Assembly (NCBI GenBank): GCA_000991405.1
Contig: LBRL01000001.1
Coordinates: 222,172-286,171, forward strand
Length of the DNA stretch: 64,000 nucleotides
From: Candidatus Nomurabacteria bacterium GW2011_GWD2_36_14
GTDB lineage: Bacteria > Patescibacteriota > Minisyncoccia > Phycocordibacterales > UBA9973
Direction of reading: 5' to 3'
This document shows, one piece after another, positions 16,974 through 48,541 of this stretch (position 1 is the stretch's first letter; each line of letters opens with the position of its first letter). A program made the translations under genes and the position numbers. The notes beneath the pieces were generated by a model, which was not told the DNA's origin, ran no database searches, and was given only the letters and a program-made list of their open reading frames with translations.

Positions 16974-17438
16974 ATGAATAAAAAATTTATTGTAGCAATG
17001 ATTAAAGTTGTTACTCTTTGTATTATTATATTTGCAGTCAGTGCTTTCTTTATATCTGATGCAAAGATTATTGGATGGGCAGTATTAGCATTAGGATTAT
17101 TCTGTCTAGTTTCTCTAGAATTTTTCAAAATTCCGATAAAAAATGTATGGCCTGATATAGTCTTTGGTTTAATTGATAATGGTATCTTAGCTATTTTAGC
17201 TGTTATTGGTGGTTCTATTGCAGGTGTAGCTGGAGCGATTATTGGAGGAGTTGTTGGTAACGCTATTACAGATGGAATTGCTGGAGTATTTGAAGGAGAT
17301 ATGGCAGAACGATTAAGAGAGAGTAATATATCTGAGTCAAGAACAATGCTTGGCTCGTCTGTAGGTAAAATGGCTGGATGTCTTTTGGGGGCTGGGGTAG
17401 TGCTAATAATAGCAAATTTAATTAACCCAACTTTGTAG
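16974..17438 (+). CDS. Membrane protein with glycine-zipper segment
   Basis: TM helices plus GGSIAGVAGAIIGGVVGNAITDGIAG. Confidence 0.5.
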   Translation: MNKKFIVAMIKVVTLCIIIFAVSAFFISDAKIIGWAVLALGLFCLVSLEFFKIPIKNVWPDIVFGLIDNGILAILAVIGGSIAGVAGAIIGGVVGNAITDGIAGVFEGDMAERLRESNISESRTMLGSSVGKMAGCLLGAGVVLIIANLINPTL

Positions 17439-17566: not shown

Positions 17567-17899
17567 CTATTGGGGCTTGTTTGGATTGATCTTATCTATT
17601 GTATACTGGCCATTGTTTATATGTATTCTACTTTCTCCTAAAGTATTTAGGATTAAATTTAGAATTCCAAACACTGCAACCATTATAAACATTCCAAAAA
17701 TTCCCCAGAACATGTGCTTCTTGCTCGTCTTCTTGATCTCCTCATTGTCAGGAGATATCAAATACTGAAAGAGTCCGTACATGAAGTAAATTACAGCTAA
17801 AGCAAATAGGAACATTATAAGCGGACCTATAATAACCCTATTGATGCTATTCATAAGCGTAGTGACACTTGCCTCTGCAATTGGAAAGATTGAAATCAT
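17567..17899 (-). CDS. VirB2/TrbC-like pilin-type small membrane protein, paralog 1
   Basis: Two hydrophobic helices separated by a short charged loop (LISPDNEEIKKTSKK). Paralogous to the four downstream genes. Confidence 0.55.
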   Translation of the reverse strand: MISIFPIAEASVTTLMNSINRVIIGPLIMFLFALAVIYFMYGLFQYLISPDNEEIKKTSKKHMFWGIFGMFIMVAVFGILNLILNTLGESRIHINNGQYTIDKINPNKPQ

Positions 17900-17908
17900 A
17901 ATAATGTA

Positions 17909-18277
17909 TTAACAGTTTCTTCCCATGTTGTTTGCTGTTGTAGGGACACATGGAGCAACTCCAGTCATAGTCTGACTATCAACACCAAATGTTCTCTGTA
18001 CCAAACCTATAATTCCCCAGAAAGCTACGATAACGAAAAGACCGATAAGACCATTGATAATCTTTGCACGGCCATTCTTCTTAGCTTCTTCGTCTGAAGA
18101 ACTTATGAAAGTAATAACTCCCCAGATAAAGTACACAACAGCAAGAGTAACCAATGCTGGTACTATATAGTTCAACCATCCTATAACTTGCATAAGAATA
18201 GTATCAACTGTTGAAACTTGAGCGGAAGCTAATAATGGAGCAAAACCTGCGAAACCTAATGCGATGAATTTTTTCAT
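17909..18277 (-). CDS. VirB2/TrbC-like pilin-type protein, paralog 2 (Sec signal peptide)
   Basis: Signal peptide MKKFIALGFAGFAPLLASAQ followed by a helix - SSSDEEAKKNGRAK loop - helix. Confidence 0.55.
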   Translation of the reverse strand: MKKFIALGFAGFAPLLASAQVSTVDTILMQVIGWLNYIVPALVTLAVVYFIWGVITFISSSDEEAKKNGRAKIINGLIGLFVIVAFWGIIGLVQRTFGVDSQTMTGVAPCVPTTANNMGRNC

Positions 18278-18427
18278 ATGATTTAACGAAATCATGTCGC
18301 GCAACCGTCCTTTTAGCGCGACGCTTATTATTCTAATAATTTTACTAAATCCTACCGACTGTAGGAACTTAAAACGTACTTACAATACTATGTATATTAT
18401 ACCAAATAAGGCACAAAATATACAATA

Positions 18428-18748
18428 TTAATTACCAGGACCTGCCTTAATATCTGAAAAATTAGTCTTACTTCCTGCTGGCAAAAATGTATTTGAGAAA
18501 ATACTAACTAACGGCCAAATACTAACCATGACAAATAATGCTATGATCCCCCAAAGCATGAAGGTCTTCCCTTCCTTCTTCTTCTCTTCATTGTCTGGAT
18601 TCAAAAAGAATTTAAGAATTCCATAAATGAAAGCAACAATCGATAGGGCTATCAGTAAGGGAATAACAAAATCAAGCAAAGTACAAGTAAAAAAGTTTAT
18701 AAGACTTGTTAAACTAGTTATTCCTTGATCACATACAACTTTATCCAT
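18428..18748 (-). CDS. VirB2/TrbC-like pilin-type protein, paralog 3
   Basis: Helix - NPDNEEKKKEGK loop - helix. Confidence 0.55.
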   Translation of the reverse strand: MDKVVCDQGITSLTSLINFFTCTLLDFVIPLLIALSIVAFIYGILKFFLNPDNEEKKKEGKTFMLWGIIALFVMVSIWPLVSIFSNTFLPAGSKTNFSDIKAGPGN

Positions 18749-18757
18749 ATTTATATA

Positions 18758-19192
18758 TTATGTTGTGCTTTTAATATCTTCGACCGTTTTACCAATGGCA
18801 TTTGCTATGACAAACGCCCCCAATAATAATGCTCCACCAATCACTGTATACAACAAAGTTTTATGAGCAACTGTCAGTTCTTCAGAGTTACCTTGGGCTT
18901 TGACGTATAGGAATCCTGCATAAATGATAGCCAAGACAAGAAGTGGCACACCGACTATAAGGACAAGGTTTATAAACCATTCTATGAATTGGGGGAGATT
19001 ATCGATGCCTTGGATGGGGTTAGTAATACCGTCAATCTGCACTCCACAAGGCTTCTGATCCTTTCCTCCACAGTTTGGATCTGCGCTAACAAACATGAAC
19101 GGCATCACTAAAGCAAAGGCAATAATAAATACAAAACTATACTTTGATATTACTGAAATGATGCTATACTTTTTTCCTATTATTTTTTTCAT
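18758..19192 (-). CDS. VirB2/TrbC-like pilin-type protein, paralog 4 (signal peptide, Cys pair)
   Basis: Signal peptide, CGGKDQKPC, then a helix - AQGNSEELT loop - helix. Confidence 0.55.
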   Translation of the reverse strand: MKKIIGKKYSIISVISKYSFVFIIAFALVMPFMFVSADPNCGGKDQKPCGVQIDGITNPIQGIDNLPQFIEWFINLVLIVGVPLLVLAIIYAGFLYVKAQGNSEELTVAHKTLLYTVIGGALLLGAFVIANAIGKTVEDIKSTT

Positions 19193-19231
19193 TTAATTTA
19201 TTTAAAAAATTTATTTCGACAATATTAATAA

Positions 19232-20236
19232 TTACTTTTGATTCATAGGGGTCAGGAAGGTGTTGATAGTGGAATCGAGCTTGACGTTACTTACTATCGT
19301 ACTAATTATAAGCCATGCTGACAATGCTATAACATACCCAACAACAGCATTGAGGAGAATATGCTTCACCTTCTCTACTTGTCCAGACTTACCTCCTGCA
19401 GTTAAATACAAGTACCCAGTGTACATAAGTATGAGAGCCATGAGTGGAGTTGCTATAACAAACAAGAGAAACTTGATAGCGTTGTTTATAAGCTTCATAA
19501 AGAAGGTAAAGTCACAAGGAACTTTGTATTGACCTGTCACTTTATCTATATCTCCCGTGTTACACTTCGGAACTATGCCATTACTCTTCATATCTGTAAT
19601 GACAGGGTCTTCGGGAGTATTTGAAGGAGTGGGGGGGACTATTTTACTTAATTCAAAAACATTGAGAGCATTTTTCAAACTTCTCGTTGCATTATCTATA
19701 TCTGACTGTATATAATTTATATCAGCAGGTGCTCCAGCAACGTGTTTGGCATCTTTAATAGCATCACTTAATCTGGCTTTTGATCCTTGAGCATATTCCC
19801 CAGCAGAATACCCTTCGACAGCCTTATCATAAGCATTGTTGGCTTCTGATATCATGCCATTTAGTGCACTGAAATTTAGTGGTACCTTAGGTGTACTAAA
19901 TCCAATTTCGTATGATAGGTTATCGATCTTAACTTTGGCCTTATAGTTAACCCCAGCATCAAGCCCTGAGAAGGAAGCTTCTCCTCCACCCTTCTCATCG
20001 GTAATCAAATCAGCAGTAAGTTGCTTGTGATCTGTGGTATATCCTTTATCTGGAATTATATTAACTTTTGTAACTGTACTTGGAGGAATACCAGAAACTT
20101 TTATAGTAACAGAATTGGAGGTTAGATCTGAATAAGTCATTACTACTCCAGCACTATCCACTATATGAGAAAATGAAATAGCAGACAAAAGTACAAATAT
20201 AAATGCAAATATAAATCCTAGGAATTTTTTATTCAT
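19232..20236 (-). CDS. Secreted protein with a C-terminal VirB2/TrbC-like pilin domain fused to an N-terminal extracellular domain
   Basis: Signal peptide, a roughly 220-aa extracellular region, a Cys pair (KCNTGD...VPCDF), then a helix - AGGKSGQVEK loop - helix. Confidence 0.5.
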   Translation of the reverse strand: MNKKFLGFIFAFIFVLLSAISFSHIVDSAGVVMTYSDLTSNSVTIKVSGIPPSTVTKVNIIPDKGYTTDHKQLTADLITDEKGGGEASFSGLDAGVNYKAKVKIDNLSYEIGFSTPKVPLNFSALNGMISEANNAYDKAVEGYSAGEYAQGSKARLSDAIKDAKHVAGAPADINYIQSDIDNATRSLKNALNVFELSKIVPPTPSNTPEDPVITDMKSNGIVPKCNTGDIDKVTGQYKVPCDFTFFMKLINNAIKFLLFVIATPLMALILMYTGYLYLTAGGKSGQVEKVKHILLNAVVGYVIALSAWLIISTIVSNVKLDSTINTFLTPMNQK

Positions 20237-21539
20237 AAATATTCTTTAAAATAAGATCAAGCTGATTGTAAGCCTTACTTATAGAAGACGAGACCGAAAG
20301 CTTATTTGATAATGAATTCTCTATTAATTCTTTGAATATAGAATCCGTCTGATCCTTATTTGGATCTAGCCATGAGCGAGAAATGATTGCTGAGTCGAAA
20401 AACGTAGACAAATATGGATCTGCTGGCTTGTCTTTCAGTAGAGATCTCGAAGCTGTAGGTAGAGAGGTTCTAATACTTAATTCTTTCAGAAAGGCTGGGT
20501 CGGTCATCATAGCAGATACACTTTGTGCTGTGGCAACATTGGCAGACTTCTTACTTACAAATACAGAGTGAATATTGCCATAAGTACGCCTGATATTCAT
20601 ACCTTTTGTCTGAGGTACCTCTGCCACATTGAAGCTTAAGTTGGGATTTACTGATTCTATATTGAACAATTCACTTCCATAACCAATATAGAAGGCAAGT
20701 TTACCAGAAGTAAACATATCGAGAGAATTTGGCATTGAACGGTTCCATGAATAAGAAACATTTGATGGGTTTGAAAATTCTAAAAAGAAGTTCACTATTT
20801 GCTCCATAGGGTTCGAGCCATCACTTGCAGTGTCCTTGATAGTTGAGCGATAACCTTTATCTACAGGAACGGCAATAGGGTTGTTGCTCTGCAAGAGCAA
20901 CATAGACAGAATGTCTTTGGTATGGTTTACATTATCATACTGACCAAGGGCAATCATACTTTGAGAGATAGTGCCGTCTTTATTCTTCTTGATAAGCTTG
21001 GAGCTTAGATCAAATAATTCATCCCAAGTGGCAGGCGGGTAGACGATGTTTTCATTGGAAAGCATGTCTTTGTTGTAATATAAAACTAGTGGATCCACTA
21101 GTAGAGGGTACCCTAGGACCCCATTCTGTGTTAGATAAATACTGGCACCATCTATAAATGTATTATCGAAAGCTTTCTTGGGATAACTAGTGAAAGGAAT
21201 AGTGGAAGTGAAATTCACATTTCGAAGAACCATGTCTGAAGGAAGTATGAATAAATCTGGACCCTGATCCTTCGCAAAGGCTTCTATAAGGTTCTGCTCA
21301 TAATTTTCACTTTTCTGTTCAACATATGAGACCGAGAGTTCTGGATTGGATCCATTTATGCTTTTGAATAATTCTCCAACTTCTCTATCTGGAAGTATTC
21401 CCCAAATAATTACTTTTCCTGAAATGCCATTGACGCCGCTTGAGCCACCACCGATCTTGAGAATGCCAGAAAATATAAGAACTCCAAAAACAAAGAAGGC
21501 TAGAAATATGGCAACTAAAATTGTTTGAAAATTATTCAT
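20229..21539 (-). CDS. Membrane-anchored extracellular solute-binding protein (SBP_bac_1-like), orphan
   Basis: N-terminal TM helix. VIIWGILPDREVGELFKSINGSNPELSVSYVEQ...PDLFIL matches an ABC sugar-SBP N-lobe. Confidence 0.55.
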   Translation of the reverse strand: MNNFQTILVAIFLAFFVFGVLIFSGILKIGGGSSGVNGISGKVIIWGILPDREVGELFKSINGSNPELSVSYVEQKSENYEQNLIEAFAKDQGPDLFILPSDMVLRNVNFTSTIPFTSYPKKAFDNTFIDGASIYLTQNGVLGYPLLVDPLVLYYNKDMLSNENIVYPPATWDELFDLSSKLIKKNKDGTISQSMIALGQYDNVNHTKDILSMLLLQSNNPIAVPVDKGYRSTIKDTASDGSNPMEQIVNFFLEFSNPSNVSYSWNRSMPNSLDMFTSGKLAFYIGYGSELFNIESVNPNLSFNVAEVPQTKGMNIRRTYGNIHSVFVSKKSANVATAQSVSAMMTDPAFLKELSIRTSLPTASRSLLKDKPADPYLSTFFDSAIISRSWLDPNKDQTDSIFKELIENSLSNKLSVSSSISKAYNQLDLILKNIYE

Positions 21540-21540
21540 A

Positions 21541-22083
21541 TTATTCTCGTATGAAAATTATACCATAATGATGTTCATTTGTAGTAATTTTCTCGACAAA
21601 TTTGAAACCTCTTTTGGTAAATAAGTCAGTCGCTACATTTGGAAGTACTACATGCTCTTCGCTTGGACCCATACCACTAAATGAAGAGGCCCAATCTATA
21701 AATAAAACCTTGCCACCATTTTTCAGTATTCTACTTGCTTCATCTATCAGGCCTATTTTGTCCTCCGCTTGAAATAAAACATTGGCAACAATAACCGCAT
21801 CCATAGAGTGATCGGCAATCTTGGTACCATGAAGCTTCTCAATGTTACCCCAAATACATTCTACATTAGAAACTTTCCATTCTTTAATCTCGCTTTCAAG
21901 CTTCTTCACTAAACCTTTCTGGACTTCTACTGCGTAGACGTGCCCTGTATGACCAACGTGCCGACTTGAAGCCAAAGAATACGCTCCCGTACCTGCTCCA
22001 AAGTCTGCAACACGCATACCTTCCATTAATCCTAATTGAGCGACATTTTTTTCTGGATTTGAAAACATATATTTATTATACAC
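21541..22083 (-). CDS. Class I SAM-dependent methyltransferase
   Basis: VADFGAGTGAYS motif I and NGGKVLFIDW. Confidence 0.7.
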   Translation of the reverse strand: MYNKYMFSNPEKNVAQLGLMEGMRVADFGAGTGAYSLASSRHVGHTGHVYAVEVQKGLVKKLESEIKEWKVSNVECIWGNIEKLHGTKIADHSMDAVIVANVLFQAEDKIGLIDEASRILKNGGKVLFIDWASSFSGMGPSEEHVVLPNVATDLFTKRGFKFVEKITTNEHHYGIIFIRE

Positions 22084-38108: not shown

Positions 38109-38183
38109 TCCGTGGTAGCTCAGCGGTAGAGCGATCGCCTGTTAAGCGATTGGTCGTAGGTTCGATCCCTACCCACGGAGCCA
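38109..38183 (+). tRNA. tRNA-Asn (anticodon GUU), CCA encoded
   Basis: Acceptor TCCGTGG/CCACGGA, D-arm GCTCAGCGGTAGAGC, anticodon loop CTGTTAA, T-arm GTAGGTTCGATCCCTAC. Confidence 0.9.
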
Positions 38184-39737
38184 GACAGGACAAAGGGACT
38201 CAAAAGAGTCCTTTTGTCGTTTATTAGTAACTGTTTTATTTAGTTCGAAAATCTTTTGAGCATCTATTTTTTCTTGAACTCTCTTAGATAGGACCTCAAC
38301 AGGTTTCTTTAGTAACGGTATGACTTTTTCGTCTTTTAACATCAAGTTCGAAAAAATATGAGATAAAAGTAATCTTCGTTCTTCAGGACTTCTTTTTTCA
38401 TATATTTCTCTTGCTCTAAAAGCAAGATCTAATATATTTAACCAAATTTCAAAATATTTTGTTTCTACATTTTTTATTCTTGATATTTGTTCTTGTATCT
38501 CTGATTGTTCTTGATTTATTTCTTTTTGTTTTTTCTCCCAACCTTCAGTACTAATTTTTTGATCAAGTCTATCATTGTAGAGTATATCTAGTCGACTCTG
38601 TAGTTGAATATAACGAGCATTAAGAGTGTTTAGAGTGTTCTCTTTGTATTCTATCTCTTGAGCATGATTTGTTTTAATTTTGGCTTTTATAGCCTCAGCT
38701 TCTTTTTCTGTAATATTCTCAAAAAACTTGAAAACTCCGAAAAGCTGTTCCTCAATTTTCTTCTCTGGAGTATATGGTTTTTGAGTGCAGTCTTTATAAT
38801 GGTTACAATGATAATACACAATTCCTTTCTTTATCTCCGCTGTAATAGTACAGTTACATTCTCCACATTTCATCATCTTTCTAAATTGGAAACTATGTTT
38901 GCTGTAGGTAGGAGCTAGATGACCCCTTCTCACACTCTGGGCTTTATCAAATAGTTCTTTTGTGATTATAGGCTCATGCTTTCCTCCTGAGTGAAGTATA
39001 CTATTCCATCTCATAGCTCCGTAATAGAATGGTTCATTTAGAAGGTCTTCTATTCTATTTTTGGCTGGTTTATTACCTGCACGAGTTCTAAATCCTTCAG
39101 TATAAAGTTTTTGCCTCAATGCTTCCATCGAATAGTTACCACTGGCATACATTTCGAAAGCCTTTTTAATAAATGGAGCTACTTCTTCATCAATTACATG
39201 AATTTTGTGCCCTTTATCTCCAATTGTTTTGTACCCAATAGGAGGCTTAGTTGGAAGCCACCCCTGAGCTAATTTTTCCACTTGACCTTTCTTAACTTCC
39301 TCAGAAAGATTAGATATAAACTTTTTAGCTAACACAATTTCAATATCCCAACGAAACTTTTCATCAGATTTGGCATTCTTATGAAGAATAAGATTTTGTT
39401 TTACGAAGTGTATCTTTCTTTCTAAATCTTCATCTATCCAGTCATTAGCAAATACAGCTTCTTTTAAGTTACGAGTTAAACGATCCACCTTTTCAACTAT
39501 TAGATTCTTAATGTCATTTTTCTCTATAAATGACATCATTTCTGCGAATACTTTTCTCTGTTTTGCTCCACTAGCACTCTCGGCCACAGCAAATACTTTT
39601 ACATTTGTAATTCCTTTTCTATTGGCATATTCAGAGAGTAATTTCTCCTGTGAAGGAAGAGAATAACCTGTTTCTTCTTGTTCTTTTGAAGAAACTCGGC
39701 AATATAGCACAGAATTATTTATATTAGAGGTTTTCAT
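38169..39737 (-). CDS. Large serine recombinase (integrase); the last 5 codons overlap the tRNA-Asn 3' end
   Basis: N-terminal catalytic YCRVSSKEQ; C-terminal Cys-rich zinc-ribbon and coiled-coil typical of large serine recombinases. Confidence 0.8.
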   Translation of the reverse strand: MKTSNINNSVLYCRVSSKEQEETGYSLPSQEKLLSEYANRKGITNVKVFAVAESASGAKQRKVFAEMMSFIEKNDIKNLIVEKVDRLTRNLKEAVFANDWIDEDLERKIHFVKQNLILHKNAKSDEKFRWDIEIVLAKKFISNLSEEVKKGQVEKLAQGWLPTKPPIGYKTIGDKGHKIHVIDEEVAPFIKKAFEMYASGNYSMEALRQKLYTEGFRTRAGNKPAKNRIEDLLNEPFYYGAMRWNSILHSGGKHEPIITKELFDKAQSVRRGHLAPTYSKHSFQFRKMMKCGECNCTITAEIKKGIVYYHCNHYKDCTQKPYTPEKKIEEQLFGVFKFFENITEKEAEAIKAKIKTNHAQEIEYKENTLNTLNARYIQLQSRLDILYNDRLDQKISTEGWEKKQKEINQEQSEIQEQISRIKNVETKYFEIWLNILDLAFRAREIYEKRSPEERRLLLSHIFSNLMLKDEKVIPLLKKPVEVLSKRVQEKIDAQKIFELNKTVTNKRQKDSFESLCPVWLRG

Positions 39738-39825
39738 AATTGTATTTTAACTTATTTTTATAATTTATTATAATCTTTTTATTTAGTCTTATTAGTATGA
39801 CCTTAAGTCATGTATAAATTTACTG

Positions 39826-40188
39826 TTAGTCATATGGACCCTGTGACTTTAAGTCACTTGGTTTAGTAGCCCAATCCTTTGAATGCGTAAGATAGTACTG
39901 ATTACTGACCCATTGTCCTCTACTTTTTGTTTTGGTTATTTTTATAAATCCATATTTTTCTAAGATAGGGAGATGTCTAATAACTGTTCTTGGGTTTATG
40001 TGCAATTCTTCTGATATTAGTACCTCTGATGGGAATGCAATTCTAGTCTTGCTGTTTGAGTGTCTTTTTAGGCAAAGATAGATAGAAGTCCCTATGGGTC
40101 CTATAAGTTTTGCATATTGGTCTATAAATACATTACCCATCTTAAACCAACCTCCATTTTTTGTTTTTATATATTTCAGCTCATTCAT
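39826..40188 (-). CDS. Winged-HTH protein resembling the RepA_N / replisome-organizer N-terminal domain
   Basis: FIDQYAKLIGPIGTSIYLCLKRHSN...ISEELHINPRTVIRHLPILEKYGFIKI. Confidence 0.5.
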   Translation of the reverse strand: MNELKYIKTKNGGWFKMGNVFIDQYAKLIGPIGTSIYLCLKRHSNSKTRIAFPSEVLISEELHINPRTVIRHLPILEKYGFIKITKTKSRGQWVSNQYYLTHSKDWATKPSDLKSQGPYD

Positions 40189-40195
40189 AAATTTA

Positions 40196-40468
40196 TTAAA
40201 TATTAGAATCTAGAGTTGATTCCCTAGGAGCTGACACTAGGGAATCAACTTTAAGTTCCAATTTTTCTTTTTGTTTATCTTCATAATCAAACTTTGCAAG
40301 CAAGTCAAAAAAAGATGAAAGTTCATTCAACTCTTGAATATTTAATTCTTCTTCTGTTGAGCTATCTAATCTCATTGTTAAAATACTGACGACATATTTT
40401 TTCAATCGTCTTAGATAAGGTAAAATTCTTTTTCTGAGATAACTCAGAAAGTTTCTCGTGTAGATCAA
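40196..40468 (-). CDS. Hypothetical protein (90 aa)
   Basis: ORF only. Confidence 0.35.
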   Translation of the reverse strand: MIYTRNFLSYLRKRILPYLRRLKKYVVSILTMRLDSSTEEELNIQELNELSSFFDLLAKFDYEDKQKEKLELKVDSLVSAPRESTLDSNI

Positions 40469-40647
40469 CCACTATACGAATTTGCTTCGTAATTCTTCTT
40501 CTTTTTGCGTGACAAATTATCTTTACCATTTAATAATTATCTCATCACTTATTACTGGTGGTAACTTTCTTTTACCTTCACTCTATATTCACGCAATGTA
40601 AAAAAATAACCCTATTTAATAAGGTTATTTTTACTTGTGGATAAGTA

Positions 40648-41313
40648 CTACTTAATAATTGAGATGGAAAAAATGTATTTATTAAAACAATAGCCAGAAC
40701 CAGCAGGAATAATTAAATTATTTTCTTGCTCAAATTTATCTTCAAAAGATTTGTTTATATTTTTAATAGCAGTAGAAACACTTCGTTCTTCTGAATATCC
40801 AGCTTCTTCTGTTAGTTTAGACATCGTTTTTGGTGATCCTTTTGACAACAATTTTAATATTTCTAGTTTTTTATCACTAACTTTTATTGAATTTTTTGAG
40901 TCTTCCTTAAGAAAAATCAGACCTCGTAAGTCTATACAAACTTTTTGTTTATTATCTTTTTTTGTATACTTTTGTAAAGTAATTGGATTATCTTCTATTT
41001 GATTTTTAAGTAATTCAATTTTTTCTTTTGCTATGCTGGGGGCAATTCTTCTAATTAGTAAATCATCACCTATATTCTCTTCAGAAAAATATTGCTGTTT
41101 ATCTATTAGGATCAGTTTTTCAAGTACTTTCGATAAATTATTTAAGTCTTGCATAGTAACACCATAAGCATTCAATGAATAAAGGGGTATTCTAGTATTA
41201 GAAGAAAAACCAGGAAAACCTTTTTGGTAATTTTCAATAAGGTTTACAACTTGTAACATTTTATCACAGTCTTCTTTTGTTAGTTTAGGTGTATTGATAA
41301 TATATTCTTCCAT
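40648..41313 (-). CDS. DNA-binding protein with C-terminal OmpR/PhoB-type winged helix, no receiver domain
   Basis: VSDKKLEILKLLSKGSPKTMSKLTEEAGYSEERSVSTAIKNINKSF. Confidence 0.45.
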   Translation of the reverse strand: MEEYIINTPKLTKEDCDKMLQVVNLIENYQKGFPGFSSNTRIPLYSLNAYGVTMQDLNNLSKVLEKLILIDKQQYFSEENIGDDLLIRRIAPSIAKEKIELLKNQIEDNPITLQKYTKKDNKQKVCIDLRGLIFLKEDSKNSIKVSDKKLEILKLLSKGSPKTMSKLTEEAGYSEERSVSTAIKNINKSFEDKFEQENNLIIPAGSGYCFNKYIFSISIIK

Positions 41314-41861
41314 ATTAAAGATAATCTCATTTTTTTAGGTTTTTGTCGACAATTTTTTATTTAATTGAGTCAAAGAAATGCGACCTTTTGCGACCCATTA
41401 TATTTATCGATATTTTATAAGACTCTTTAATCTAATAATTTCTTATTGGAATTAAATATACTTCCACAAAATATCTTGTAAATAAATGACATTCTGATCA
41501 TACCCATACTAAAATACCGAGTTTTGCCTAGTCCTAAAATGCCACCTTTTGCCACCCACTCTTCCCGCCTTTTCCCACCCCTTTTCACCTCTAATACATC
41601 AGACTTTTTCAGACTTTTTATAAAAGAATCTATTTATTGTATTTGTCGACAAAAAGAGCTATTATAAAAATACAACGCCTAAACCAGAAATGGCATGGCT
41701 ACATAGGAAACCCACGCAAATAGTAATGGCCTCACAGTCATCACCATTTGCGTGGGTCCATATTCGAAAGAGTATGGGGTGTTCTCGAAAGAGGATATCA
41801 GATGGTCTGTGGGGCCTTTACTGTCTTCATAACCATATTATAAATTAAAAACCCACGCAAA
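41314..41861. promoter_or_regulatory. AT-rich noncoding region with palindromes and direct repeats (candidate operator/iteron-origin region of the element)
   Basis: TTGTCGACAA palindrome twice (about 41341 and 41643). AAACCCACGCAAA twice, forming a 12-bp inverted repeat at 41710-41762. A CCACC(T)TTT pyrimidine-repeat tract. Confidence 0.5.
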
Positions 41862-42848
41862 ATGAAAAAAATACAAATAATTTGTTTAATTGTTTTTTGT
41901 TTTCTTTCTTTTAGTATCGCCCGTGCAGAAACTTTGATTATAAAATCAGTGGATAAAAGAATAGAAGATATTGAAAAATCTCGAGAGAAACTTCAAAAAG
42001 ATATTGAAAATAATTATAAACAAGTTCAAGCTGAATTAAAAAGTTTAAGTGCAAGAATAGACACTAATATAAAAAGTGAATTTTATTGTGTATTACCAAC
42101 TCAAACTTGCACGGAATCTATCTATCAAGGTATTAGAGGAACTGCCATATCGAGTGGTCTTATTCCAGATGCTGGTCAACTTGCTCAATGCAGAGCTAAG
42201 ATTGATGAATATAATACAAAATTACAGGAATATAATAAATGTTTTCAAGATTGGCAAAATAAAAAGATTGGAGATTCGGCTCAAAAAGAATACGATTATC
42301 AATTGCAAGTATATGAATTAAAATCACAATTAGCCTGTATGGATAAAGAAGGACACTATTCGTCTTTCAATAAAATAACTAAACAATGTGAGTGTGTAGA
42401 AGGTTCAACATTCGTCAACGGAAAATGCATAAATCGTATAGATAATCTACTTATGTGCGTAAAAACTTTTGGTCCATTATCTCATTATGATTACGACAAA
42501 GCTGGTTGTGTATGTGATGAGGGTAGTAAATTAGATCTCGAAAAAGATCTATGTGTTGCTGAAACAGAAAAAGTAGTACCTCCCCCAGTAAAAGAAAAAT
42601 CTCCCTATAAGAATAAATTTCAGGAAATTTTACAACAAAAGGAAACTGAACAACCCTTAAAACCCTCTCAAGGGCTTAAAGAAAGTCCCAAGAGCATAAT
42701 TACTGTTGTAGAGGAGAAAGTACCTTCACAGGCTGAAATTACCCCAAATACTTCGCATGATATACAACCTCCAGCTATTACAGGTCCATCAAATGTAACA
42801 TTCTGGCAAAAAATTAAAAAAAACTTCTTGAAAATTAAGTTTTGGTAA
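41862..42848 (+). CDS. Secreted Cys-rich protein with N-terminal coiled-coil (signal peptide)
   Basis: Signal peptide MKKIQIICLIVFCFLSFSIARA and multiple C..C pairs. Confidence 0.5.
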   Translation: MKKIQIICLIVFCFLSFSIARAETLIIKSVDKRIEDIEKSREKLQKDIENNYKQVQAELKSLSARIDTNIKSEFYCVLPTQTCTESIYQGIRGTAISSGLIPDAGQLAQCRAKIDEYNTKLQEYNKCFQDWQNKKIGDSAQKEYDYQLQVYELKSQLACMDKEGHYSSFNKITKQCECVEGSTFVNGKCINRIDNLLMCVKTFGPLSHYDYDKAGCVCDEGSKLDLEKDLCVAETEKVVPPPVKEKSPYKNKFQEILQQKETEQPLKPSQGLKESPKSIITVVEEKVPSQAEITPNTSHDIQPPAITGPSNVTFWQKIKKNFLKIKFW

Positions 42849-42858
42849 AAATACTTTT

Positions 42859-43122
42859 ATGAAAATTAACCTATTATTTTGGATATTTATACTAATAGCT
42901 TTCATTGGAACATTTTTATATTATCTAGGAGAAACAAGGAAGAATAATATCGGTGAGGTCATTAAGTTTTCTGGAGGAATTATTACATTTGGTATTCTAA
43001 TATCCTCATTCTTTTTATTAGAATGGAAGGCGTCATTCTTGCTTATTATTGGCGAATTCACAATAATCAGTTTTTTATCAACTTTACTTGTTGAATCTAT
43101 GACAAAGAGACGTATAAATTAA
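42859..43122 (+). CDS. Small membrane protein (3 TM)
   Basis: ORF with hydrophobic helices. Confidence 0.4.
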   Translation: MKINLLFWIFILIAFIGTFLYYLGETRKNNIGEVIKFSGGIITFGILISSFFLLEWKASFLLIIGEFTIISFLSTLLVESMTKRRIN

Positions 43123-43127
43123 ATATT

Positions 43128-43541
43128 ATGGAAAAATTAAAGGGGCTGATAATTAGTGTATTACAAGAAGAACAAACTAATCATATGAATAAACAAAAAA
43201 GAATCAAGGAGTTGGTATTGGCTATCGTTTTAACAATTTTACCAATTTTTATATTTATAATAATGCCTGCATTAGAAGATAAATACTTTGACTTGTTTTC
43301 TGGGCGTTTGATGTACCTAAGTCAAGATTATTATTTTTCTTTTTCCCCACTTTTTATCTTTGATTTGCCTTACTTTTTTACCCCAATAATATCAGCTTTG
43401 GCAGTATGGTTTTGTCTTAAAATTAGAAAAAGTATAGAAAATAGAAGTTCATTTTTTAACTACCTTAATCTCGTCTTAATTGTTTTGAATAGTGTTTTTT
43501 CCTTATATTCCTTATGGTTTTTATTGTTATTTTATAAATAA
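43128..43541 (+). CDS. Membrane protein (4 TM)
   Basis: ORF with hydrophobic helices. Confidence 0.4.
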   Translation: MEKLKGLIISVLQEEQTNHMNKQKRIKELVLAIVLTILPIFIFIIMPALEDKYFDLFSGRLMYLSQDYYFSFSPLFIFDLPYFFTPIISALAVWFCLKIRKSIENRSSFFNYLNLVLIVLNSVFSLYSLWFLLLFYK

Positions 43542-43597
43542 AAATCTAAAATCGTAGTATTATTTGATAATTTATTATTTTCGTATACAATATACAT

Positions 43598-44572
43598 ATG
43601 GCAAAAGAAGAAAAGCAGATTATCGAGAATAATTCAAAAAATGGTGTAAATGAAAAGATACCAAATAATGAAGATTCTGCTCAAAATAAGAAAGTCGAAG
43701 AAGAAATATCTCCTCTTAAAAAATTATTAAAGAAGAGTGATGTTTTGCTTATGTTATACCCAAAAGACATAAATGGAAATTTTTCAGCCAGCATTGATCC
43801 TGAAGATGAAATTTCTATTTATAAACTTTTGAAGGAAAAGAAGGAGAAGAAAAAAGAACTTTTAATTTTATTAGATACAAGTGGTGGTAATGTATATTCG
43901 GCGGTTAAAATAATGGATACATTAAGAACCCAATATAATCAAATAAATATTGCAATACCGCAGGAAGCTAAAAGTTCTGGAACTATGATGTGTTGTGGTG
44001 CTAATAATTTAATAATGAGTTCTATCTCTGAACTTGGACCATTAGATAAGCCAATGATTCATCCTAATGATGAGACAGCAAGAATCTCTGCTTTAGATAT
44101 TATTAAATCTATCGATGGCATGTTGGATACTGCACAACAAAGAGAAAAAGATTTTGCCAAAGAGGTAAATAATGATTTTGGAATACCTATTAAACAAAGT
44201 TTGCAATTAGCAAGTGAATCAATCTCTAAACTAATATCACCTATGTTGTGTAGAGAAGATGTAAAAATCTATAATCAAGCCCAAAGATTACTTGTTATAG
44301 CCCAGAAATACGCCACTGAACTATTAGACGCACATATGTTAAAATATATTGATCGTAAAAAACTTAAAGAGAGAATTATTGATATGACTACTAGGCAGTT
44401 GATATGGGCATATCCTGACCATAGTTTTGCTATTAGACGAGATGAATTGAGAGAATGGTTTTTTATTGTAAAAAATTCTGAAGATGTTGATTATTGGGAC
44501 GAACTTTGGGATAAATTTTATCAAAATATAGGTTATAAAAATAGTAAATTGATTAAATTTTTAGATAATTAA
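43598..44572 (+). CDS. ClpP/crotonase-fold serine peptidase, SDH (serine dehydrogenase proteinase)/S49-like
   Basis: ILLDTSGGNVYSAVKIMDTLR...IPQEAKSSGTMMCCGANNLIMSSISELGPLDKP matches the lhTpGG...A.SaGT.ia.aAdei.M....lGpiDP pattern. Confidence 0.55.
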   Translation: MAKEEKQIIENNSKNGVNEKIPNNEDSAQNKKVEEEISPLKKLLKKSDVLLMLYPKDINGNFSASIDPEDEISIYKLLKEKKEKKKELLILLDTSGGNVYSAVKIMDTLRTQYNQINIAIPQEAKSSGTMMCCGANNLIMSSISELGPLDKPMIHPNDETARISALDIIKSIDGMLDTAQQREKDFAKEVNNDFGIPIKQSLQLASESISKLISPMLCREDVKIYNQAQRLLVIAQKYATELLDAHMLKYIDRKKLKERIIDMTTRQLIWAYPDHSFAIRRDELREWFFIVKNSEDVDYWDELWDKFYQNIGYKNSKLIKFLDN

Positions 44573-44583
44573 GATATAATTTT

Positions 44584-44790
44584 ATGAACATTGCAATATT
44601 AACAAAATTTAATATGGATGAAAAAGATACACTACCCTTAGATAGCGGTAATAACGATGAATTTCCTATGAGTGTTAGCGAAAAATTAGTAAGAAATGAA
44701 GTGAGAAAATTGACTGAAAATTCTAAAGAAATAAAAAAACTAAAGGAACAAATTGAGAAAAAGAATAACAAAAATAAGAGTGATTTATAA
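44584..44790 (+). CDS. Small hypothetical protein
   Basis: ORF only. Confidence 0.3.
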   Translation: MNIAILTKFNMDEKDTLPLDSGNNDEFPMSVSEKLVRNEVRKLTENSKEIKKLKEQIEKKNNKNKSDL

Positions 44791-44847
44791 TATTCTAATT
44801 TAATAGGTCGATAAGTTTAATATATTTAAGTAATTTTAATAAAAAAT

Positions 44848-45045
44848 ATGTCAGGTAAAAATAGGATAATTATAAAAAAATCAACAAATAAACAAAAATA
44901 TGTTGTATTAAAATCAGCTAATAATAAGACTATAGCAAATACGGAAACATATAAAAGTAATCAGAGTGTAGATAAAGCAGTTAAAGCTCTAAAAAAGATT
45001 GTTAAAAATGCTATCATTGTAGATCAGACTAAAAAAGAGAAGTAG
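44848..45045 (+). CDS. YegP/DUF1508-family protein
   Basis: IIIKKSTNKQKYVVLKSANNKTIANTETYKSNQSVDKAVKALKK. Confidence 0.6.
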   Translation: MSGKNRIIIKKSTNKQKYVVLKSANNKTIANTETYKSNQSVDKAVKALKKIVKNAIIVDQTKKEK

Positions 45046-45149
45046 AATTATTAAACTAATAGTGATCTTATTTCAGCTAATGCGATATTTGGGAAAGGAT
45101 ATTCTTTGGCCCAATCAATAGTTATAAAATCGTCCGTTAGGGCGAGCCA

Positions 45150-45554
45150 ATGAAAGAGGCAGTTATAAGTTTGATAAGTGTCATAGTGGGAGCCATTATA
45201 GGTCTAATGGGTACTTTTTTATCTTCATACTTTCAGAATAAGATTTGGAAGAAAGAAAAACAGATTGAACATTTAAAAGCTAAAAAAGAAAATCTAGAAA
45301 ATAAATACGAGAAATATATCAAAGAGTTATATCTTTCTATGGAAAAGAATGGCAATTTTGATGCTGAACTGTTTCTAGAGGGTCTATACTCTTTCCCGAA
45401 AAATGTCAAAGACTCAATTTATAAACTAACTAAATTAAAAACAGGTAAAGAAAATCTGGAGGAACTTAAGCAAGCTAATTGGTGTATAATCGAAGAAATG
45501 AAAAAATCATTAGTTGAAATTGATATCGAAATAAAAAAGAAAATTGATGATTAA
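45150..45554 (+). CDS. Membrane-anchored coiled-coil protein
   Basis: N-terminal TM helix followed by a coiled-coil. Confidence 0.4.
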   Translation: MKEAVISLISVIVGAIIGLMGTFLSSYFQNKIWKKEKQIEHLKAKKENLENKYEKYIKELYLSMEKNGNFDAELFLEGLYSFPKNVKDSIYKLTKLKTGKENLEELKQANWCIIEEMKKSLVEIDIEIKKKIDD

Positions 45555-45677
45555 CTTGTGCAAATCATAATCCGAGAATCTTCGCATGTTAGGAGTAGCA
45601 AGGATGGTCCTTGCTACTCTGTTACTATTCTTCTTTATACCTAAATGATTTTTTATATTATGTTATAATATACTCAT

Positions 45678-45875
45678 ATGAAATATTTTAAAAAAGCACT
45701 GTTTATTTGTTTTATAGTCTCACTTATTTTCTCTTTGTTTTGGACAATCGGAAAGTTTTTTAATTCTGATATGCCTATGCTTGATAGACAAACTTATTCT
45801 ATAATGTCTGGATTAAAATACCTTACAGCCATTGCTTTATATATAGCTTGGAGAGTTACACCAGACCATAAGTAA
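45678..45875 (+). CDS. Small 2-TM membrane protein
   Basis: ORF with hydrophobic helices. Confidence 0.35.
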   Translation: MKYFKKALFICFIVSLIFSLFWTIGKFFNSDMPMLDRQTYSIMSGLKYLTAIALYIAWRVTPDHK

Positions 45876-45980
45876 GTATTAGTTAGTTGTTGTGAATTAT
45901 CAAGGATGGTCTTTGATAGTTTCAGCAAGCAAATGAATTTTAAAAAATAAAACTCGACAAAGTCTGAAACAATGCCGAGT

Positions 45981-46367
45981 TTATTTTGCAAAAATTTTTT
46001 TTGTAATTAGATAACTCACGATCGACAATATGACAGTGATAAATATTTGTGCAATTAAATATTTTAAGTTTATATATTCAACTAGTAAATATAAAAATAT
46101 ACTATTTGCACAAAGCAGTACTCCTGACATAATAAAATACCGGAGAATCTGTTTGGGAATTTCTTTTTTGTCTTTATTATCAAAAGTCCAATACTTCTGA
46201 AACAAAAAACTGGATGTATAAGATAAGATAGAACCAATTGCCGCAGATATCGGATACCAAATTTCAACGAACTCAGTTAAACAATAAAGCGTTAGATAAT
46301 ATAATCCTACACATATAATTCCACTTATACCAAATTTTGCAATCTTTGGGATTTTTTTAGTTTTCAA
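45981..46367 (-). CDS. GtrA-family membrane protein
   Basis: 4 TM helices. FQKYWTF resembles the GtrA FxxNRxWTF motif. Confidence 0.55.
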   Translation of the reverse strand: MKTKKIPKIAKFGISGIICVGLYYLTLYCLTEFVEIWYPISAAIGSILSYTSSFLFQKYWTFDNKDKKEIPKQILRYFIMSGVLLCANSIFLYLLVEYINLKYLIAQIFITVILSIVSYLITKKIFAK

Positions 46368-46525
46368 TATAGCCTCCTTTTTTCTTCATACTAATTGATA
46401 ATTCCCCAAAAAGCAATTTTTAATCGCGTTTCTCTTTTAAAAAGTTCCAACTTCATTCTAAATTTGAAACCTCAATTTTAACCCTATAATTCAAAACCCC
46501 TACCCTTTTATCAAATTCTAACCTA

Positions 46526-46936
46526 TTGACTTTACAAGTTGAAAAATGTAATGTGAAAGAAAAATTGTCTAACTCTAAAATAAAATATGTTATGAAAAGT
46601 ATTCTTGTAATTACCATTCTAGACAGAAATGAAGATCTAATTGAGCAATTCATGGCCGTAGGCATAGAAACACACATCTCAGTATTTTTCTATAGACCGG
46701 AGAATGAAAGAAATCTATTAGATCGTATTAAAAAAAGTCGTCCAGCTATGATAATAATGGACGGCAGGATACATCCATTAACACTGGAAAATATCTACGA
46801 CAGTATTTTCAATACTCTTGGTGTATATGACATGGATTCTAATATCTATGCCATTAAAAAAGAAGTTCATCTACCAGGAGTAATTAATACAAAAATAGAA
46901 AATTTTGTAAAAATATGGGAAGAGTCGCGAAAGTGA
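46526..46936 (+). CDS. Hypothetical protein
   Basis: ORF, followed by a hairpin that shares GAGTAGCAAGGA with the hairpin at 45590. Confidence 0.35.
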   Translation: MTLQVEKCNVKEKLSNSKIKYVMKSILVITILDRNEDLIEQFMAVGIETHISVFFYRPENERNLLDRIKKSRPAMIIMDGRIHPLTLENIYDSIFNTLGVYDMDSNIYAIKKEVHLPGVINTKIENFVKIWEESRK

Positions 46937-47087
46937 CTCTTTTTGTTTTTATCTTACCTAAAGAGTAGCAAGGACGATTCTCGTTACTCTTTCTTTCCAC
47001 CCTAGTATCTATATTTTTCAAAAGGTATACACTTAAGACAAATCTACACAAATTCTAAATTTAATTTAACCTACTAAATTTATTATT

Positions 47088-47321
47088 ATGAAAAATGTAA
47101 CAATTTGTCTCTCTTGTGCAGATGTGTGCAAGAATGGAGTTTTTGTTAAAAGCGAAAAAGAAATAGCTAAATTATGGTTGCTGACATTTCGTAAACCTAA
47201 AGCAGATATAGATATAGTTATCTATGTTTGCCCAGAATGTTACAGATCCTTTCCAAGGGAATATTTGGAAGCGATAAAAATGAAATATTATGAGAAACAG
47301 CTAGAACAAACTTCAGGATGA
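47088..47321 (+). CDS. Small zinc-ribbon protein
   Basis: CLSC...CPEC Cys pairs. Confidence 0.4.
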   Translation: MKNVTICLSCADVCKNGVFVKSEKEIAKLWLLTFRKPKADIDIVIYVCPECYRSFPREYLEAIKMKYYEKQLEQTSG

Positions 47322-47801
47322 AGTTTGTTCTTTCATTTAATTTAACCAATTTACTTGGGTAAATTTAAAGGGCAACTTTTGTTGCCCTAGGGGTTTATAC
47401 TTTTTTTAATAATTTTAATGAAATTTTTTCAATTAATTCAATTCTTGGACTAGGATCAAGTTGTGAGACATTAAAGCCTTCGGGTAAATCACCAGAATAA
47501 ATTTCCTGATAAAATTTAAGAATTTTTTGAGAAACAATAGGATACATTCTAATAATTTCATCGGAGAATTTTTCAATTCCTAAATTGGTGACAATAGGTT
47601 TTCTGTCATTTTCTGTATAAGCAAAATATGTCTTTTCCCCATTTAAACCCTTACTAAAAATAATGATTCCTTCACTAGTTTCAGTTGTTCCTATAAATTT
47701 AGTTTTTTAAAAAGTGAATATTTGGTTTAATTATAATCTTTTATTTTATAACTAGCAATACAAGAGTTTACGACTCCTCTTTTGATTGCTATACTAATAC
47801 T

Positions 47802-48011
47802 ATGCAAAAAACAGCTACAAAAATCTTCATTTATTCATCAATCGTTTTCGGAATTATCGGAATACTGGTTGTTGTGACTGGTTCTGGACCAGATGCTCCA
47901 GATTCAAATATTAGTAAAATATTGATTAGACTTCTATTTGCAACGGTATTTGTCATCTTGCCTTCATTCGCATTAAGTATTGCTAGCAAATACTTGAACG
48001 ATAAATCTTAA
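47802..48011 (+). CDS. Small 2-TM membrane protein
   Basis: ORF only. Confidence 0.35.
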   Translation: MQKTATKIFIYSSIVFGIIGILVVVTGSGPDAPDSNISKILIRLLFATVFVILPSFALSIASKYLNDKS

Positions 48012-48094
48012 GCTTCGTGTTTGTTTCCAAAAAGGTTTCTACTTAATCCAAAATCGGAATAAGTGAATTCTACTTTTTTTGCTATAATACAATA

Positions 48095-48541
48095 ATGAAA
48101 CATATTAACTTAAAAGGTTCTTGGATTATTAAGGCGCCTATTGATCAAGTTTTCAAAATAGTTACGGACTTTGAAAATATACCAAAGAATTTCCCAACTG
48201 TTGCAGAGTCATTGGTTATTACCAAGAAAGATGGCAATAAATTGGAAATTGATGCCCAAGTAAAGTCTTTCGGCACAGTGTTCCCCGTCAAAATGAAAAC
48301 AGAAATTATTCCTGAGAAAGGGTATGTTTCTGATAATGAGAATTCGAAATTGGGTATATCTGGTCATGAAGAATTTATGATGGAAGAGACAGAAGAAGGC
48401 ACGAGGATTAATTATACCTATGGAGTTGATATTCACAATAGATGGCTAAGAATAATAGCCAGACCACTTCTAAGTTGGTACTCAATGAAATTCTGGGAAA
48501 AGGCTTTTATTGATAGATTAAAAAAGATTTGTGAAAACTAG
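48095..48541 (+). CDS. SRPBCC (Bet v1/START-like, polyketide-cyclase-type) domain protein
   Basis: The IKAPIDQVFKIVTDFENIPKNFP pattern and its size. Confidence 0.5.
   Translation: MKHINLKGSWIIKAPIDQVFKIVTDFENIPKNFPTVAESLVITKKDGNKLEIDAQVKSFGTVFPVKMKTEIIPEKGYVSDNENSKLGISGHEEFMMEETEEGTRINYTYGVDIHNRWLRIIARPLLSWYSMKFWEKAFIDRLKKICEN

Follow-up and report, generated by a model that had tools for sequence, protein, structure and literature searches.

The window analysed in this work is a stretch of 64,000 nucleotides from Candidatus Nomurabacteria bacterium GW2011_GWD2_36_14 (GCA_000991405.1), in which five back-to-back open reading frames (ORFs), P1 to P5, occupy the region 17567-20236 on the minus strand and encode proteins of the family PF18895 (T4SS_pilin). 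We hold with moderate confidence that this locus is the Paceibacteria version of the Patescibacteria VirB2-like (PF18895) pilin array, that is, a set of five non-redundant hairpin subunits forming one heteromeric envelope structure, which is probably built by a type IV secretion system (T4SS) encoded elsewhere in the genome. This reading is carried by the family membership of the five proteins, their topology-consistent architecture, the fixed order of the five paralogs and the features of their operon. Tandem VirB2-like arrays in Patescibacteria were published between 2023 and 2025, so that the kind of feature was already known. The first-pass annotation of the window, made from the sequence alone, had described five consecutive minus-strand genes with a common helix-loop-helix module, and its coordinates proved exact. 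The genes are transcribed from P5 towards P1:

17567-17899 (-): P1, 110 aa, last gene of the array; PF18895 hairpin protein without signal peptide (26.6 bits); loop SPDNEEIKKTSKK
17909-18304 (-): P2, longest ORF 131 aa; 122 aa from the ATG at 18277, the probable start (as set by the gene caller); signal peptide MKKFIALGFAGFAPLLASA; PF18895 module 42.2 bits; loop SSSDEEAKKNGR
18428-18748 (-): P3, 106 aa; PF18895 module 35.1 bits; no signal peptide; Cys pair C6/C22; loop NPDNEEKKKEGK
18758-19192 (-): P4, 144 aa; signal peptide followed by the PF18895 module (25.1 bits); loop AQGNSEELT
19232-20236 (-): P5, 334 aa, first gene of the array; in order, signal peptide, FN3-like beta-sandwich (~32-114), FIVAR-like three-helix bundle (~123-196), low-confidence linker, Cys pair 225/241 and PF18895 hairpin (243-317; 31.1 bits)

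The gaps between the genes measured 9 nt (P1-P2), 123 nt (P2-P3), 9 nt (P3-P4) and 39 nt (P4-P5). Hydropathy analysis revealed in every protein an amphipathic lead-in and two hydrophobic helices of ~25 residues each, connected by a charged loop of 13-14 residues, and AlphaFold2 (AF2) models contained the corresponding helical hairpins (H12-48 and H53-87 in P1, H243-279 and H284-317 in P5). All loop strings quoted in the first-pass annotation were found. By inspection, signal-peptide-like N-termini were present on P2, P4 and P5, three proteins as had been proposed, and none on P1 and P3. A Cys pair ahead of the first helix, formerly ascribed to two proteins, occurs in three: P3 (C6/C22), P4 (C41/C49) and P5 (C225/C241). 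The pair of P5 was invariant across 30 homologues; that of P4 was missing from the three orthologues inspected (L002, L004, L006), and P2 has a Cys pair at its C-terminal end instead. The C-terminal tail of P1 is short and conserved. P2 is 100% identical to US04_C0001G0245 of Ca. Nomurabacteria GW2011_GWD2_36_14, and P1, P4 and P5 likewise have identical counterparts among annotated Candidatus Nomurabacteria proteins.

The best Pfam family of all five proteins was PF18895, with E-values from 8e-11 to 2e-5. P2, P3 and P5 scored above its gathering cut-off of 26.6 bits, P1 exactly at it and P4 slightly under. On these profile matches, the membership of the array proteins in PF18895 is established. 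A profile of the five paralogs matched exactly these five among the window ORFs (E 3e-44 to 4e-34), which is a circular test, and no sixth copy of the array was found in the window with it. The family is very large: at E <= 1e-3 the same profile matched the representatives of 56,543 clusters formed at 50% identity. PF18895 and PF04956 together have been used to define the VirB2-like pilins of Patescibacteria (Quinonero-Coronel et al., 2025; PMC12102498). The five adjacent genes satisfy the array definition of that study, at least two PF18895/PF04956 genes in tandem or one non-pilin gene apart.

The first-pass annotation had called these proteins VirB2/TrbC-like pilins. The pilin part of this assignment held, PF18895 being the leading family; kinship to bona fide VirB2/TrbC proteins could not be demonstrated. 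In the search with PF04956 (TrbC/VirB2; cut-off 27.9 bits), which had been suggested along with PF18895 as a check, P4 was the sole paralog with a noticeable score (23.3 bits, E 7e-5); P5 reached 10.8 bits, both under the cut-off, and no match was obtained for P1-P3 at E <= 1. Some P5-type orthologues gave weak TrbC/VirB2 matches. In hhalign comparisons with seven annotated VirB2/TrbC proteins from MPF-T plasmids, the P4-type profile gave E 0.073 and the P1-type profile E 0.14. The same method yielded merely 33% probability between the P1-type and P4-type paralogs of this very array, and it is thus insensitive for short hydrophobic hairpins. A PDB sequence search with two profiles returned no pilin and matched helices of G-protein-coupled receptors (E > 0.07); a Foldseek test of the pilin-like fold returned nothing below E = 1. 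The comparisons of fold and profile with genuine VirB2 do not discriminate, so that membership in TrbC/VirB2 proper appears unsupported.

A further relationship was indicated by the NCBIfam model NF045849, the Mbov_0395 family (equivalog cut-off 40 bits), which matched P1 (32.2 bits), P3 (31.5), P2 (29.9) and P4 (17.3), all below threshold, and did not match P5. The alignments of P1-P3 were near full-length (E 6e-8 to 3e-7). These scores suggest homology, not membership. They also suggest that PF18895-like proteins occur in monoderm conjugative elements of the MPF-FATA type; Gram-positive T4SSs have been said to have no VirB2-like genes (PMC12102498, PMC12857230). An identity as type IV prepilins, which the first-pass annotation had already dismissed, was rejected: a regular-expression search for the cleavage motif G[FMLIVY][ST][LF][ILVP]E found it in none of the five proteins, and the sole pilin-type matches were to ComGF (E 0.07-0.11).

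Conservation of the array was assessed in 28 related loci, obtained through look-ups of three homologues and by scanning GTDB with one genome for each species. The array was complete in 23 of them. Each of these has exactly five PF18895 genes, and best-hit classification gave the type order P5-P4-P3-P2-P1 in all 23. Two subgroups can be distinguished among the paralogs of the window. P1, P2 and P3 are 36-38% identical to each other and have loops of the PDNEE or SDEE-KK type, and P4 and P5 (32% identity) have a common YxG(F/Y)LY...G motif; short local alignments between the subgroups gave 17-42%. Orthologues at the same array position were 40-75% identical to the corresponding window paralog (48-74% for P3), as against 17-42% among the paralogs of the array. 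The fixed order, and orthologues closer than array neighbours, indicate five non-redundant subunits and not antigenic variants. In the complete loci GyrA was 85-94% identical (22 loci with GyrA on the contig), the neighbouring solute-binding protein (SBP) 48-72% and the neighbouring methyltransferase 58-79%. As judged from these identities, the five paralogs are old and individually conserved, and their rate of evolution does not exceed that of the SBP and methyltransferase next to them. Homologues of the P1 type, in more than 50 protein clusters, were 60-92% identical to the window P1, and their loop residues P50, D51, N52, E53, E54 and K60 (P1 numbering) were invariant or nearly so, which implies a demand on the loop beyond that of a passive membrane anchor.

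P5 differs from the other subunits by its ectodomain of ~220 aa, described in the first-pass annotation as an extracellular domain fused to the last-listed paralog; in the AF2 model it consists of an FN3-like sandwich and a bundle of three helices. This model of P5 had a mean predicted local distance difference test score of 76, and its top Foldseek matches in the PDB were FN3 domains (E 6e-5), with the FIVAR-containing chain 2ozn_B also among the matches. In 30 homologues of P5 the C-terminal module was nearly invariant and the N-terminal part hypervariable; P5 orthologues range from 109 to 702 aa and carry FN3 or IPT/TIG repeats. In another sub-clade the P5-type protein is short and the P1-type gene has a C-terminal extension, giving 281-774 aa in total. 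According to these alignments the variable part is the appended ectodomain only. The position of the large domains, N-terminal on P5-type or C-terminal on P1-type proteins, agrees with a hairpin whose two termini lie outside and whose loop lies inside. The first-pass annotation had regarded a cytoplasmic loop as evidence against pilins. This was mistaken, as the inter-helix loop of membrane-embedded VirB2/TraA pilins (F and T pilins) is cytoplasmic.

The array belongs to a longer series of minus-strand genes, which also contains a promoter-like region in the gap between P3 and P2:

22102-22075 (-): promoter-like site, TTTAAA, 16 nt, TATAAT (10/12 matches)
21541-22083 (-): methyltransferase, small class I S-adenosylmethionine-dependent enzyme, 175-180 aa; Methyltransf_31/11/25, E 1e-13 to 3e-14; 1 nt upstream of the SBP gene
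20229-21539 (-): SBP, 436 aa, family 1, membrane-anchored by one N-terminal transmembrane (TM) helix; SBP_bac_8 and SBP_bac_1, E 3e-20
18334-18425 (-): internal promoter and 5'-untranslated region (5'-UTR) element in the P3-P2 gap, also at the same position in L008-L032
18425-18420 (-): -35 element TTGTAT
18404-18396 (-): extended -10 element TGGTATAAT, sigma-70-type, 18 nt from the -35
18366-18350 (-): 6-bp hairpin TCCTAC-AGTCG-GTAGGA
18342-18334 (-): invariant motif AAATTATTA

The stop codon of the SBP gene and the start of P5 overlap by 8 nt (ATGAATAA). In each of the 25 related loci whose contig continues upstream of the first pilin gene, the SBP gene is the one directly before it; the methyltransferase gene (24 loci) and gyrA (23 loci) come before the SBP gene wherever there is enough contig. 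In the window, neither a permease nor an ATPase of an ABC transporter was found as a partner for the SBP. In a distant relative (L035, GyrA 68% identical) the SBP gene is followed by one P5-type pilin gene, and the other four are not adjacent. The methyltransferase gene is probably the first gene of the transcription unit of SBP and array. The promoter-like site in front of it ends 7 nt before the ATG at 22068 (gene-caller start, 175 aa), so that the operon mRNA could be leaderless or nearly so.

The P3-P2 gap was aligned across 15 loci. The TATAAT of the -10 element was invariant, and the hairpin and the motif AAATTATTA were conserved. The hairpin was 81% paired, compared with 31-52% in slid controls, and compensatory changes were present in five of its six pairs. 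No Rfam family was found for it, and hairpin and motif may be a 5'-UTR stabiliser or the binding site of a regulator. From the conserved promoter elements we infer promoter activity in this gap and two transcription units, methyltransferase-SBP-P5-P4-P3 and P2-P1, of which the second would be more strongly expressed.

The PF18895 module also occurs in concatenated form. The best-scoring relatives of the array proteins are single chains with 2-17 tandem modules spaced ~85-100 residues apart (P0292-P0431, for example P0302, P0298, P0300 and P0321); the largest, of 1,775 aa, has 17 matched stretches in the search table and 14 by recount. Almost all of the 25 most module-rich chains start with a signal-peptide-like hydrophobic N-terminus. 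In P0053 and P0054 (~200 aa each) a P2-like module is naturally fused to a P3-like one, and such fusions were taken as support for a side-by-side assembly of the modules. A peak of five-module fusions that would mirror the five-gene array was looked for and rejected. There was none among the top 140 representatives (1-14 modules by recount), where 2 modules occurred 67 times, 3 modules 25 times, 4 modules 19 times, 5 modules 7 times and 6 modules 9 times, counts that come from a score-ranked list and are hence biased.

The genomic surroundings of the array were examined over 81 kb, namely the window (~421.7-485.7 kb of an 800,830-bp scaffold) and 10 kb past each of its ends (412.7-493.9 kb, with the array at ~465 kb). 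The array is flanked by SBP, methyltransferase and gyrA on one side and by unrelated genes on the other, and it does not lie beside virB3/virB4. A Pfam scan of 37 window ORFs revealed no T4SS family, in agreement with the earlier remark that VirB4, VirB6 and VirD4 are missing from the window, and every large ORF of the window proved to be a housekeeping gene. A check for hydrophobic segments in 18 ORFs, including all those without a Pfam match, found one polytopic protein, encoded by a 154-aa ORF at 16974-17438. Homologue searches with P5, the five-paralog profile and the SBP returned no paralogs from the same genome outside the array. In the published survey the assembly GCA_000991405.1, which carries the identical P2 protein, is listed as VirB4-positive (Table S1; PMC12102498), as are almost all sibling Nomurabacteria assemblies of ~36% GC. 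A pilin gene lies near virB4 in merely 1,135 of 1,948 assemblies (PMC12102498), so that linkage to T4SS genes is not obligatory; in Paceibacteria virB4 is usually near dnaA.

Three other explanations of the locus were weighed. The first-pass annotation had read the multiplicity of the genes as antigenic or functional diversification. The copies would then be alternative, mutually exchangeable major pilins serving antigenic or host-range variation of the surface, an idea put forward for the VirB2 paralogs of Bartonella and Anaplasma and also suggested for Patescibacteria (PMC12102498). The paralog identity of 17-42%, akin to the array average of 25% (PMC12102498), speaks for such variation, as do the strong differences between species in the length (109-702 aa) and domain content of the P5 ectodomain. 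However, gene number, order and type are the same in 23 of 23 complete loci, positional orthologues are much closer than array neighbours, P1-type proteins keep their 60-92% identity over more than 50 clusters and the rate at which the pilin modules evolve is not above that of their SBP and methyltransferase neighbours. No recent duplicates, pseudogene cassettes or recombination repeats were found. Variability is confined to the appended ectodomain, and for the pilin modules this explanation, which we consider unlikely, is largely refuted. Even less probable is that the proteins belong to a different two-TM family, such as holins, bacteriocin-immunity proteins or VirB3/PrgI-like inner-membrane subunits, and merely resemble pilins. 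The two-helix hairpin is a trivial fold and a few weak matches to such families were obtained (E 0.005-0.1), but for P1-P3 and P5 the lead of PF18895 amounts to 3-8 orders of magnitude, and for P4 it is a narrow one over the related TrbC (1.9e-5 vs 7.4e-5). A holin or phage origin was rejected, as none of the five matched a PHROG family (holins included) at E <= 0.01. No VirB3 family matched at E <= 1, and the signal peptides and extracellular FN3/TIG domains are unlike those of holins. The unrelated two-TM family, for example a holin-like one, that the first-pass annotation had listed among its possible refutations did not emerge.

Several observations weigh against a pilus built by a T4SS. 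No T4SS gene (VirB4, VirB6, VirD4) was found in the 81 kb around the array, whose neighbours are housekeeping genes (gyrA, ftsZ, ftsA, mreB, secA, dnaE, hisS, lepB), and the evidence for VirB4 in this genome is indirect, as it comes from the published table (PMC12102498) and was not seen directly. Chains of up to 17 modules (~34 TM helices) do not sit easily with subunits being extracted one at a time into a filament, and the published work on these arrays has not reported a visualised pilus of PF18895 proteins. The five hairpin proteins could instead form a static hetero-oligomer independent of any T4SS, a ring, raft or anchor platform for surface domains, perhaps together with the SBP, and 'pilin' would then be a misnomer for this branch of PF18895. 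We regard this as possible, though less probable than the pilin array. It agrees with the lack of linkage to T4SS genes amid housekeeping genes, with the coupling to an orphan SBP, which is upstream in 25 of 25 loci, the distant one with a single pilin gene included, with the long module chains, which look more like fused proteolipid rings than extractable pilins, and with fold and profile links to VirB2 that are not significant. On the other hand, the same kind of array lies within the T4SS cluster in Saccharibacteria, and both are essential there (PMC10633639), a pilin gene is found near virB4 in the 1,135 assemblies mentioned above, and the sub-threshold matches to TrbC and to the conjugal-transfer family of Mycoplasma integrative and conjugative elements (ICEs) are nevertheless specific. 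Moreover, the linkage to the SBP is inseparable from the general gyrA-methyltransferase-SBP synteny of the clade.

Comparison with published arrays supported the assignment to Patescibacteria pilin arrays and also revealed differences. In Southlakia epibionticum a series of predicted pilin genes lies inside the T4SS cluster and is essential (PMC10633639); the cluster has six pilins, and such arrays have been called the only monoderm T4SSs with pilin genes (2025 review, PMC12857230). A survey of 3,035 genomes with PF18895 and PF04956 found 441 arrays of 2-11 genes each in 383 assemblies, with a mean within-array identity of 25% (PMC12102498). Like the arrays of Ca. Southlakia epibionticum ML1 and the 'Sec-secreted array' of Nanosynbacter lyticus TM7x, the present one consists of tandem divergent PF18895 paralogs (17-42% identity here, ~25% published). 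It likewise belongs to a monoderm host from the candidate phyla radiation (CPR), has no relaxase context and comes from a species with VirB4 reported for one of its genomes. Unlike the S. epibionticum array, it lies away from T4SS genes, behind gyrA, the methyltransferase and the orphan SBP. Patescibacteria pilin arrays are most abundant in Microgenomatia and Saccharimonadia (PMC12102498), whereas the present array is from Paceibacteria. The fixed, ordered five-member set, the internal promoter and the mobile ectodomain are features absent from the published array descriptions (PMC10633639, PMC12102498, PMC12857230).

The VirB2/TrbC/TraA pilins of diderm T4SSs (T-pilus, F-pilus) are also small, often with a signal peptide, and have an amphipathic segment and two helices joined by a short charged loop; the N-out/C-out topology suggested here is compatible with theirs. 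The array proteins differ from them in lacking significant sequence or profile similarity, in not being encoded beside virB3/virB4 and in their monoderm host. Where these systems have one major pilin, the array has five obligate paralogs, one of them bearing a 220-aa ectodomain. The Mbov_0395/MMCAP2_0565 family (NF045849) likewise has a two-helix module of 80 residues, and its host is a wall-less monoderm with a T4SS of the MPF-FATA type; the Mycoplasma ICE protein is encoded by a single gene within a mobile element, in contrast to the chromosomal five-gene array. An archaeal CedA1/TedC-type pilin (Aeropyrum pernix pilus, PDB 8dfu) was matched at 12% identity and rank 57 of more than 1,300 equally good helical-hairpin matches, which is not diagnostic.

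If the locus is a Patescibacteria pilin array as favoured here, there would be five distinct, non-interchangeable two-helix subunits in the cytoplasmic membrane, their two ends facing outwards and their conserved charged loop (PDNEE..KK type) facing inwards. P2, P4 and P5 would enter by means of their Sec signal peptides, and P1 and P3 would be inserted directly as hairpins. Packed next to each other, the subunits would form a single heteromeric envelope structure, with a short pilus or stalk as its likeliest form, and the builder would be a monoderm-type T4SS (VirB4) encoded elsewhere in these genomes, typically near dnaA. The FN3 and helical-bundle ectodomain of P5 would project from this structure as a host-binding adhesin. 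P2 and P1 would probably be the abundant subunits, since they have their own conserved strong promoter. The translationally coupled, membrane-anchored SBP, as a product of the same operon, may act at the same host-contact site. T4SS dependence, filament formation, the adhesin role and the stoichiometry of the subunits are parts of the model that we infer.

A more far-reaching proposal, which we advance only as a long shot, is that a single heteromeric T4SS-type filament is built from all five paralogs, each of them obligate and in stoichiometric amount, possibly one per strand of a five-start helix that would match the five-fold symmetry of known conjugative pili. With its swappable FN3/TIG adhesin, this filament would work together with the SBP as a contact-dependent device importing host-derived molecules. 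If true, this would be a nutritional use of T4SS pilins, and not DNA or effector delivery, in a bacterium unable to make those molecules. Patescibacteria make up much of the bacterial diversity that is uncultivated, and they live attached to the cells of a host. In their sole genetically tractable member the T4SS and the pilin array are essential. The locus is no new kind of system; it sharpens the question of what the structure looks like and what it moves, as the five distinct subunits, kept as a fixed set throughout a whole Paceibacteria clade, speak for a heteromeric assembly rather than for antigenic variants. The appended Ig-like ectodomain, the co-transcribed orphan SBP and the internal promoter lead to testable predictions for CPR surface filaments, concerning their stoichiometry, their abundant subunits and the identity of their adhesin.

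Some further features of the window were noted. The polytopic 154-aa ORF (16974-17438, plus strand) is convergent with the end of the array and has 4-5 hydrophobic segments, a glycine-zipper region and a weak TMEM65 match (E 4e-4). An ORF of 154 aa was likewise called downstream of the array in L002, the likeness being known by length alone. In another part of the window the following features were found:

38109-38183 (+): tRNA-Asn
38169-39737 (-): large serine recombinase gene, overlapping the 3' end of the tRNA-Asn
39826-40188: DnaD-like or replication-initiator-like ORF
43598-44572: ClpP/SDH-type protease-like ORF (PHROG 21683, E 5e-29)

The last two ORFs lie in a low-GC stretch beyond the recombinase gene (28-30% as compared with ~36%). 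No att-type repeat of the tRNA-Asn end was found at 38109-48500. With its recombinase gene at the tRNA and its low GC content, this segment of ~10 kb resembles a mobile element that has integrated there, or what is left of a prophage.

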